Assembly (NCBI GenBank): GCA_951406725.2
Contig: OX597814.1
Span: forward strand, 10,168,001 to 10,232,000
Length of the DNA stretch: 64,000 nt
Direction: 5' to 3'
From: Octopus vulgaris
Lineage: Eukaryota
How positions within the stretch are numbered: position 1 is the first letter of the stretch; the number at the start of each line of letters is the position of its first letter. Below are positions 41,573-43,684 of this stretch, piece by piece. The position numbers and the translations under genes are program-made. The notes below the pieces were generated by a model, which saw only the letters and a program-made list of their open reading frames with translations, had not been told where the DNA came from and did not search any database.

Positions 41573-41752
41573 TCAGATATATCGACACAAAATTTCATTA
41601 CTCTTGATTATGGAAAGAAGTTTTATATATTAATCTATCTTTTATTAAAAATATCATGTTTGAAAAAATTTTTTTGAGATGAGTACATTTATTGAAATAA
41701 CGGGACTTGCAGAAAATACCAATTCTGTTTAATGGTTGATACTTAGAATCAT

Positions 41753-41815
41753 TGATTGATTGATTGATTCTAGTTTCAGCTCACGAGCTGTGGCCATGCT
41801 GGGGCACCGCCATTT
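41753..41815 (-). mobile_element. Very short CR1-group LINE 3' tail with (AATC)n
   Basis: Minus strand AAATGGCGGTGCCCCAGCATGGCCACAGCTCGTGAGCTGAAACTAG-(AATC)4 matches the 3' ends of the LINE fragments at ~37506-37550 and ~39431-39476. Confidence 0.8.
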
Positions 41816-41821
41816 AAAAAA
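41816..41821 (-). terminator. RNA polymerase III oligo-T terminator of tRNA-Leu
   Basis: T6 on the minus strand, following a 6-nt trailer (AGCATC) after the tRNA discriminator base. Confidence 0.75.
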
Positions 41822-41827
41822 GATGCT

Positions 41828-41940
41828 TGTCAGAAGTGGGATTCGAACCCACGCCCACATACGTGGACCAGAATACTCATTGTTCTGGTTAAGGATATTA
41901 TCCTTGAGTCTGGCGCCTTAGACCACTCGGCCATCCTGAC
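41828..41940 (-). tRNA. tRNA-Leu(CAA) with a 29-nt intron (41874-41902)
   Basis: Minus strand reads GTCAGGATGGCCGAGTGGTCTAAGGCGCCAGACTCAAG-[gataatatccttaaccagaacaatgagta]-TTCTGGTCCACGTATGTGGGCGTGGGTTCGAATCCCACTTCTGACA. Acceptor stem GTCAGGA/TTCTGAC, A and B boxes, long variable arm, intron after position 37 with TGAGT able to pair with ACTCA of the anticodon arm; mature length 84 nt. Confidence 0.95.
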
Positions 41941-42160
41941 AGCTGAAATAATCATGAAATTTAATTTTGCACTGTGTGTGTGTGTGTTTATATATAAAGG
42001 CAATTTAGAAAGAATTACCTAAATAACCTTAGTCGCTACTCTGATTCATGTTTAAGCTATTCTTGCAGAGTAAATAGACTTAAAAAGAAAAATGAATATA
42101 TTTCTTGAATTTTTTCTGTTTCCACATTCATTTTATTTTCAATATTCTGTGTAATTTCAG

Positions 42161-42434
42161 GCGGATGTTCCCAACATGTAGGGTATCCTTTTCCGGACTG
42201 GAGACAAACACTAAGTATATGGTTATGATGGACATCGTGCCTGTAGACAGCAAGCGTTATAGATATGCCTATCACAGGTCTTCTTGGTTAGTAGCAGGCA
42301 AAGCTGATCCACCATTACCGACCCGATTTTACGTGCATCCAGATTGTCCTTTTACGGGAGATCAATTACACAAACAGACGGTATCATTTGAGAAACTAAA
42401 GCTGACCAATAACATGTCGGACAAGACTGGACAC
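42161..42434 (+). CDS. tbx20: Tbx20/H15-like T-box transcription factor, internal exon A (N-terminal part of T-box)
   Basis: Acceptor ...gtaatttcag|G at 42160/42161 and donor CAC|gtgagt at 42434/42435. 274 nt encoding [113 protein letters not shown] is characteristic of the Tbx20 subfamily. Confidence 0.95.
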
Positions 42435-43684
42435 GTGAGTCTCAGTAAATACATTTGATTATATATTTAAACGACTATGTCTGCTGTGGAGAGCATTTGG
42501 CTCTTATTGTAAAAATTTAATTCAATAAAATTTATGATAATTTCAGTTGTTCTTAATTCTTAACTTACTGAGAAAATAAGGGGTATCTGTAACATAGCGA
42601 ATCATTGGGGTCCACTAAAAAAAAAAAATTCATTAAAACCTAGTGAGTCTATGGCAACAAAGTGTGCATTAATCAATGTACATAAGACACTAGTTAACAT
42701 TGTAATGTACCGAAACAACAGTTGTACTCCCGATATTTACAACGTTGAACATAAACGAATTATATGATTTATACTTAAGAGCGGATTATTGAAAGGAAGA
42801 TGGCATAACAGTGAATGGGTGCGAATCGATATGACTTCAGTGATTGAATCGCTAAATAATGCAATCTATCCAAATTCAACAAGCCGTTGAAATATCAGTA
42901 CCTGCGAATTCAACTGTAGGAATGAATTTGATGATGCGTACATAATCTTCTAATGAACTGCTTCAAGATGTTTCCATGCAATTACTACTGCTATATCTTA
43001 TCATGCTGATTATGGGTTCTATTGATTTATACAATCGGAAGGACATATAGACTGTAATAATTTACCACATTATCGTCTCGGAAACTTAATAACTAGAAAA
43101 GTGCTTAGTGAAATTTGGAAGATGAAGGTCTCCATCCAGCTAACTAGTTCTAGAGATATTGCAACGAAATATACTTTTCAATAATGCTCTTGCAACTAAA
43201 CAGTTTATGAAATTCACCATGAGATTGTTTGTAAAAACTGGTTATATATATTGATACACTTCTACGCTTCCAGGTGAAATGAAGACACATTCTTACAAAA
43301 CGTCAGGAGATTGTGCAAACCTCTTTCTTTTCTTTGTCAAGCGCTAGACCGTGATGAACCCCTGTACATGTTAAAAACGTCATATCTTGAACTAAATTCA
43401 GTTTCAAGGAAGTTATTAAATCATGACCGCCGCAAATTCAGCAAACAGGTTTTATATTACGAGCAAATATTTGGACGATTAATAAAATGATTTAAGGAGC
43501 ATCAGGTATTTTAATATGGAACCTAATCAATGCCCTCTGATTAATACGCTCTGATTAATATTGCTCTTGATGAATTTTTTTTATCTCATTTTCTGATGAT
43601 ATTAATAATGATGCAAGATTCCATGAACGAAACACAAGTATTTAGTTGAACGTTTCATTCTTATATATTTTCATTATATTCCAG

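Follow-up and report, generated by a model that had tools for sequence, protein, structure and literature searches.

A complete, unspliced tRNA-Leu(CAA) joined at its oligo-T end to the 3' tail of a CR1-type LINE lies on the minus strand of the octopus DNA studied here (a stretch of 64 kb analyzed in full, hereafter the window). We propose that this pre-tRNA copy was produced by end-to-end template jumping of a CR1-type LINE reverse transcriptase (RT), likely in one insertion event, a reading built on sequence comparison to which we give a probability of roughly 0.6; that it is a retrocopy, whether made by template jumping or by RNA ligation, we consider very likely. An earlier note on this DNA had treated the locus as a rare event; it belongs instead, as an unremarkable member, to a large genome-wide class in which the join site is fixed. 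The finding is this class as a whole, with its size, heads that are precursor tRNAs, and a fixed join in two LINE clades.

Architecture of the chimeric unit

The earlier note had described a complete unspliced tRNA-Leu(CAA) followed by a LINE tail on the minus strand at 41747-41955, and both the order of the parts and their coordinates were borne out. Read 5' to 3' on that strand, the unit consists of a candidate 6-bp target-site duplication, ATGATT (41950-41955), 4 extra bases (41946-41949), a 5-nt pre-tRNA leader (41941-41945), the 113-nt unspliced tRNA (41828-41940) with a 29-nt intron (41874-41902, placed by comparison with an intron-less copy), the trailer AGCATC (41822-41827), a Pol III terminator of six T's (T6; 41816-41821), AAAT plus the 42-nt two-hairpin CR1-type LINE 3' tail (41770-41815, joined 4 nt upstream of GGCGG in hairpin 1), a terminal (AATC)4 (41754-41769) that with one further A fills 41753-41769, and the second candidate copy of ATGATT (41747-41752). 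The leader, given as 9 nt in the earlier note, was upheld only in part: five bases match the probable source gene described below, after which the two sequences diverge, whereas the other four are absent from that gene, recur immediately beyond the 5' direct repeat, and were likely templated during repair of the 5' junction. The 6-bp direct repeat is likewise present but weak evidence when taken alone, as random 5' flanks set against this 3' flank in 5,000 trials gave a repeat of at least 6 nt in 257 (lenient count) or 138 (strict count) of them, corresponding to a 3-5% chance; a repeat search of the window did not report the direct repeat at 41747/41950.

Rfam assigns positions 41940-41828 to RF00005 (50 bits, E 1e-7) with an insert in the anticodon loop, and this is the sole RNA that it finds in the 64-kb window. 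With the 29-nt intron removed, the remaining 84-nt molecule is called tRNA-Leu(CAA) by ARAGORN, which misses the tRNA at 41828-41940 when run without intron search and wrongly names the same locus Met when run with it. The copy has an intact cloverleaf, A and B boxes and a terminator, and would yield the same mature tRNA as the probable source gene. Eight further CR1-type hairpin copies are scattered over the window (1842, 14535, 26563, 35970, 36935, 37510, 39436 and 51266).

About 200 bp from the unit, on the opposite strand, lies an internal T-box exon (42160-42437, plus strand; PF00907 positions 26-119). Its best match among solved structures is TBX1, and the gene may be Tbx20, as the earlier note named it. 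A motif search of the window did not find an upstream T-box exon, and the chimeric unit would sit in the intron preceding 42160-42437.

Leu(CAA) loci across the genome

A search of the genome (2.8 Gb in 227 contigs) for a parental tRNA-Leu(CAA) revealed a locus on the same contig, 74 Mb away (L002, G000:C1:84.53 Mb), that is identical to the copy over 113/113 positions including the intron. The two loci have 5 bases in common upstream, i.e., the 5-nt leader, and 5 downstream, with the AGCAT trailer of L002 leading into T7 and no repeat following it, and their surroundings are different: blastn of 1.5 kb of either flank against L002, L003 or L094 gave no match. We regard L002 as the probable source gene because it carries no tail; cluster membership lends this status no support, since Rfam found no second tRNA within 10 kb on either side of L002. 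As the limits of the copy match those of a transcript, they point to an RNA template.

Four genomic sites have the 29-nt intron. Besides this locus and L002 they are L003, a 5'-truncated copy that has the same AGCATC-T6 and leads into another tail, and L094, which is older and runs into a truncated SINE with the CR1 hairpin at its end. In this copy, L003 and L094 the T-run is preceded by a C that L002 lacks. The exact template allele was not found in the assembly, so the template would have been a different allele, L002 in an earlier state, or a copy that the assembly does not contain.

We also found intron-less Leu(CAA) loci (L167, L168, L171 and L085), each with a retroelement directly after it, using a search for one sequence variant with one mismatch allowed, such that further intron-less genes are possible. 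One of them, L168, lacks the intron yet carries the trailer of the intron-bearing gene L011. Judged from their sequence, copies that have lost the intron and retain a trailer reveal an RNA intermediate.

Other Leu(CAA) loci differ in arrangement. At G000:C29:8.82-8.83 Mb (L007-L026), at least 12 intron-bearing Leu(CAA) genes form a cluster in which none has a LINE tail, and some of these genes are followed by partial 3'-half repeats. Another locus, L023 (C4:48.87 Mb), is a chimera of Leu(CAA) and tail that has lost an internal segment; the imperfect direct repeat on its two sides measures about 35 bp and is far longer than those at other loci.

The LINE tail and its donor

The 42-nt tail segment has 1,718 exact copies in the genome, and a degenerate form of its first hairpin has 157,658 matches, most of which are probably SINE ends. 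Among the first 30 of the exact copies, 20 have at most 6 nt of LINE before the hairpin and 6 run more than 200 nt into an RT-coding LINE body; one LINE copy (L172) shows the endonuclease too. Near-full relatives encode an ORF2 of about 1,030 aa with an APE endonuclease and RT and no RNase H. The closest named relatives of this protein are from Argonauta (64-65%), and pairwise comparison matched ORF2 over the RT and C-terminus to a stork protein, which we take to be an avian CR1 ORF2. Pfam, applied to four ORF2 pieces, returned no family for two and a sub-threshold RT match for one. The CR1-group affiliation proposed for the tail in the earlier note thus draws its support from ORF2 anatomy and this pairwise comparison.

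The tail is predicted to fold into two abutting hairpins, followed by a short tandem repeat end. At the stem base of hairpin 1, U-A is swapped for C-G between loci (53 and 15 of 91, respectively), and the fold z-score is -2.2 for this tail and -0.9 for a second subfamily. On comparison with hammerhead, HDV-like and twister motifs, we rejected a self-cleaving ribozyme in the tail given the plain two-hairpin fold, no Rfam match to one in the window, and the same join in an unrelated tail. Proteins of stringent LINEs bind stem-loops of this sort (PMC4176376).

Related chimeras across the genome

The earlier note had suggested a scan for this LINE tail directly after the oligo-T of other loci, and the tail does follow many tRNA and U6 heads. 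A tRNA T-arm lies 15-45 nt before the tail hairpin at 218 genomic sites, compared with 27 sites for an antisense T-arm, 7 of which are palindromic sense Leu(TAA). The antisense T-arm was used as control in place of the reversed pattern, whose 0 matches are an unfair null because the reversed hairpin does not exist. Among the 100 of the 218 matches that were listed, 9 resembling SINE body or chance were left out of inspection and 91 were inspected, of which 85 were kept and 6 dropped (3 without a tRNA, 2 SINE heads and 1 local duplicate).

The 85 kept loci fall into 28 head clusters of about 15 amino-acid types, with gene-specific trailers and T-runs, and many of the heads are 5'-truncated. Their T-runs comprise at least 4 T's in 59/85 and at most 3 in 26/85 (about 30%), and the join falls 2-5 nt before the tail hairpin in 75/85. 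No two of the 85 share an identical T-arm-to-hairpin string, and one tRNA with its trailer was found joined to different tail subfamilies, so that these are independent events. This recurrence of the architecture, some 200 times over, together with a probable source gene that has the same intron and different flanks, favors the branch of the earlier note in which a LINE mobilized a pre-tRNA.

Heads and tails of other kinds were found as well. U6 precedes the tail in 59 matches, or about 53 events after allowing for local duplicates, and a tight pattern found 36 sites where a tRNA-like end meets the start of an abundant SINE that has the CR1 hairpin at its own end. A second, unrelated tail, presumably RTE-type by a C-terminal motif that we recognize in L058, gave 33 matches; in many of these a tRNA head is joined to the stem base of this second tail's terminal stem. 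A search for five T's followed by the hairpin yielded 817 matches, a number that includes overlap double counts and is diluted by SINE-body variants, and Rfam named no new head class on 20 of these loci.

Several individual loci stand apart. Four of them (L246, L252, L257 and L261) are short non-repetitive sequences with a T-run before the tail and no Rfam match, and are possible 3' ends of unidentified Pol III RNAs. Others (L062, L065, L116, L059/L245, L207 and L215) have tRNA-like heads with a trailer and T-run that fit standard isotypes poorly, and which are possibly unknown Pol III transcripts or SINE heads. A further group (L221, L139, L101, L067, L211 and L222) has Met(CAT)- or Lys(TTT)-like heads with an insert after the anticodon, for which ARAGORN made inconsistent calls except Met for L221; introns in tRNA-Met(CAT) or tRNA-Lys(TTT) would be unusual for an animal. 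We additionally observed one U6-tail chimera present in six copies through a local duplication of about 20 kb (L182-L187, C1:132.42-132.53 Mb), another arranged as three 86-bp tandem units (C14:8199771-8199982), and inverted (fold-back) copies of retroelement ends beside the insertion at L040, L223 and L169/L170.

Flanks and position of the join

For the analysis of flanks, we used the 73 of the 85 loci at which a paralogue fixes the start of the head, and compared them with 40 swapped-flank shuffles. Repeats of at least 6 nt matching on both flanks occurred at 33/73 loci (swapped mean 17.4, maximum 23), and repeats of at least 8 nt at 19 loci (swapped mean 5.75, maximum 9). These matching repeats are mostly one microsatellite continuing across the unit, and non-microsatellite repeats of at least 6 nt showed no enrichment (9/73, with a null mean of 4.7 and maximum of 11).

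Since the tRNA pattern is blind to joins far inside the LINE, we also sampled U6 3' ends regardless of what follows them. Among the first 30 of 198 such ends, 7 belong to a gene array, 15 (10 events) are joined at the hairpin base, 5 at an apparent SINE-like repeat start, 2 to another U6 and 1 to another element, with no join inside the LINE body. On this sample, the fixed join is not solely a product of the search pattern, and because the sites of attachment are either genuine 5' ends of other elements or the base of the hairpin, the pattern suggests that the hairpin base is an effective 5' end.

The sampled gene array is a 7-copy U6 array without LINE tail at C1:139.42 Mb (L188-L194). Serial chimeras were also seen, such as a tRNA-Lys with its trailer followed by a truncated U6 and then a U6 5' piece (L199, G000:C1:187.75 Mb), and a U6 joined to a full-length U6 at its first base and then to another tail (L204, C2:23.37 Mb). 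Both fit repeated end-to-end jumps, with tandem duplication an alternative for L204.

Proposed mechanism and alternatives

In the template jumping that we propose, all of whose enzymatic steps we infer, ORF2 bound to the two-hairpin tail would nick the target and prime on the (AATC)n end, and the RT would copy its own 3' tail of about 60 nt before jumping to the oligo-U end of the precursor. Copying of the LINE RNA would very often end 2-5 nt 5' of the hairpin—the one step seen as a pattern in the joins—and this stop position would act like an RNA end, either with the bound tail trimmed there or with the enzyme letting go. Untemplated A's would then pair with the U-rich 3' end of the Pol III transcript, the enzyme would proceed through trailer, intron, tRNA and leader, and repair of the 5' junction would leave a short duplication and a few additional bases. 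Because both promoter boxes and T6 are kept, the copy, if transcribed at all, would give an ordinary pre-tRNA stopping before the tail, and what results under template jumping is a tRNA gene or pseudogene copied to a new site rather than a SINE master. The untemplated nucleotides added by the R2 non-LTR RT are mostly A, and the enzyme requires an overhang of this kind to jump (PMC8857657), so that U-ended RNAs would be favored. Two points in the same source count against jumping, namely that overhangs of at least 3 nt are non-productive, and that characterized human L1 chimeras are argued to come from pre-ligation (PMC8857657).

Alternatively, the pre-tRNA could have been ligated as RNA, by an RtcB-type or other ligase, to a cleaved LINE tail of about 60 nt, and the fused RNA then reverse transcribed, which we consider less likely but still a serious rival. 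A defined cleavage site would yield the fixed join on the LINE side, U6 is a frequent head with its 59 sites, and RtcB joining has been demonstrated for human U6/L1 (PMC6789731). However, joins to SINE starts and to the start of U6 also occur. Pre-tRNA trailers end in a 3'-OH, without cyclic phosphate, SINE starts and the U6 5' end should carry a triphosphate or cap, and the recurrence of the stem-base join in the unrelated, presumably RTE-type tail speaks against a tail-specific ribozyme. RtcB needs a 2',3'-cyclic phosphate and a 5'-OH, and a 3'-OH or 5'-triphosphate strongly reduces joining (PMC6789731). We favor template jumping over RtcB because the end chemistry of the SINE and U6 starts and of the pre-tRNA trailers is thus ill-suited to that enzyme.

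Insertion of the LINE tail at the terminator of a resident tRNA gene, by a target preference for Pol III ends, was the other branch of the earlier note, and has in our view very little chance of being right. LINEs that target RNA genes do exist, the tRNA at this locus is intact, and the trailer C common to this copy and L003 but not L002 would allow the locus to be itself the source. Against this, neither T-run nor trailer is duplicated after the tail, heads elsewhere often lie inside a microsatellite that resumes beyond the unit, a spliced or 5'-truncated head cannot be a resident gene, and tails are lacking from 19/30 Leu(CAA) loci examined, C29 cluster included, as well as from the 7-gene U6 array. 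It is similarly hard to credit that the unit is a nascent SINE, transcribed and mobilized whole, as the earlier note had raised. Its tRNA head with an internal promoter and its cognate LINE tail would suit such an origin, and an established SINE of this genome ends in the same hairpin; however, T6 (41816-41821) stands between head and tail, this chimera exists in one genomic copy only, and no amplified unit was found among the 85 inspected chimeras.

Building on template jumping, a broader and more tentative idea, which we would not yet call probable, is that in this genome the ORF2-bound tail of about 50-60 nt in stringent LINEs, CR1 and RTE alike, may serve as a discrete minimal template whose 5' end is defined, and that the RT might routinely jump from it to any U-ended Pol III transcript. 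Such jumping could maintain a 'SINE nursery' of hundreds of independent founders, about 30% of which (26/85), having at most 3 T's, might be able to read through; it might also disperse intact, even intron-bearing tRNA genes, and record the germ-line Pol III precursor pool in DNA.

Comparison with known systems

SINEs are thought to begin when a tRNA head becomes fused with a LINE tail, and the founding fusions are normally inferred from amplified families. An RT jump onto precursor tRNAs, which likely made the locus described here, would be this long-proposed first step in SINE birth. With roughly 200 independent unamplified fusions countable in one genome, a fixed join, two LINE clades and a spread of terminator lengths, the class opens to testing the rate of founder formation, the reason why almost all founders stay dead (a retained terminator), and the choice between jumping and ligation. 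Counts of tRNA genes in such genomes also include retrocopies, as 45/85 inspected chimeras pass the ARAGORN default threshold.

As in other Pol III RNA/LINE chimeric retrocopies, the unit has a source gene elsewhere with different flanks and a sense head whose U-tract is joined to the LINE 3' end. With tRNA-derived SINEs (SINE2) it shares a head with A and B boxes and a tail identical to that of a CR1-type partner LINE, but it differs from them in the T6 terminator between head and tail and in lacking many dispersed copies of the unit. In the full-text literature, a body outside which subscription papers, supplements and Repbase lie, we found pre-tRNA/CR1-tail chimeras described neither as a class nor from cephalopods. 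An octopus repeat annotation from 2026 names 'U' and 'U-L1' SINE families, which may be the U6 chimeras, and the string 'chimer' does not occur in its text (PMC13282606).

The closest parallels are the U6/L2, U6/Mon-1 and U6/RTE chimeras of platypus and lizard (Doucet et al. 2015, PMC4476161), in which a sense Pol III RNA is likewise joined by its 3' U-tract to the short tail of a stringent LINE or its SINE. As described there, the duplications are short (1-9 bp), template switching was proposed, and 40 U6 chimeras were counted in platypus along with one uncertain CR1 case in turkey (PMC4476161). The accessible text of that study contains no tRNA survey and reports no fixed join, whereas the heads here are mostly pre-tRNAs of about 15 types, joined at the stem base, in an invertebrate host. 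Human U6/LINE-1 chimeras (Moldovan et al. 2019, PMC6789731) also combine a full Pol III transcript ending in a T-run with a 3' part of a LINE, but the L1 part is described as variably truncated and the join as made by RtcB, whereas in the octopus loci the LINE almost always contributes just the minimal tail. Primate tRNA/LINE-1 chimeras (PMC11838501) resemble the octopus class in that tRNA sequence was co-inserted with a LINE; as reported, they comprise 21 loci, most of them antisense tRNA halves, and were ascribed to twin priming, compared with about 200 here, all found in sense with trailer and T-run over an antisense background of about 20.

For PittSINE/TguSINE1 (Suh et al. 2017, PMC5729268), a tRNA-CR1 chimera from template switching is the proposed SINE founder, inferred there from an amplified family, whereas the octopus genome holds hundreds of unamplified independent founders, most of them blocked by a terminator. 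Kojima sets SINE families apart from sums of independent chimeras (PMC4494074), and in these terms the octopus class is a sum of independent chimeras, not a SINE family.
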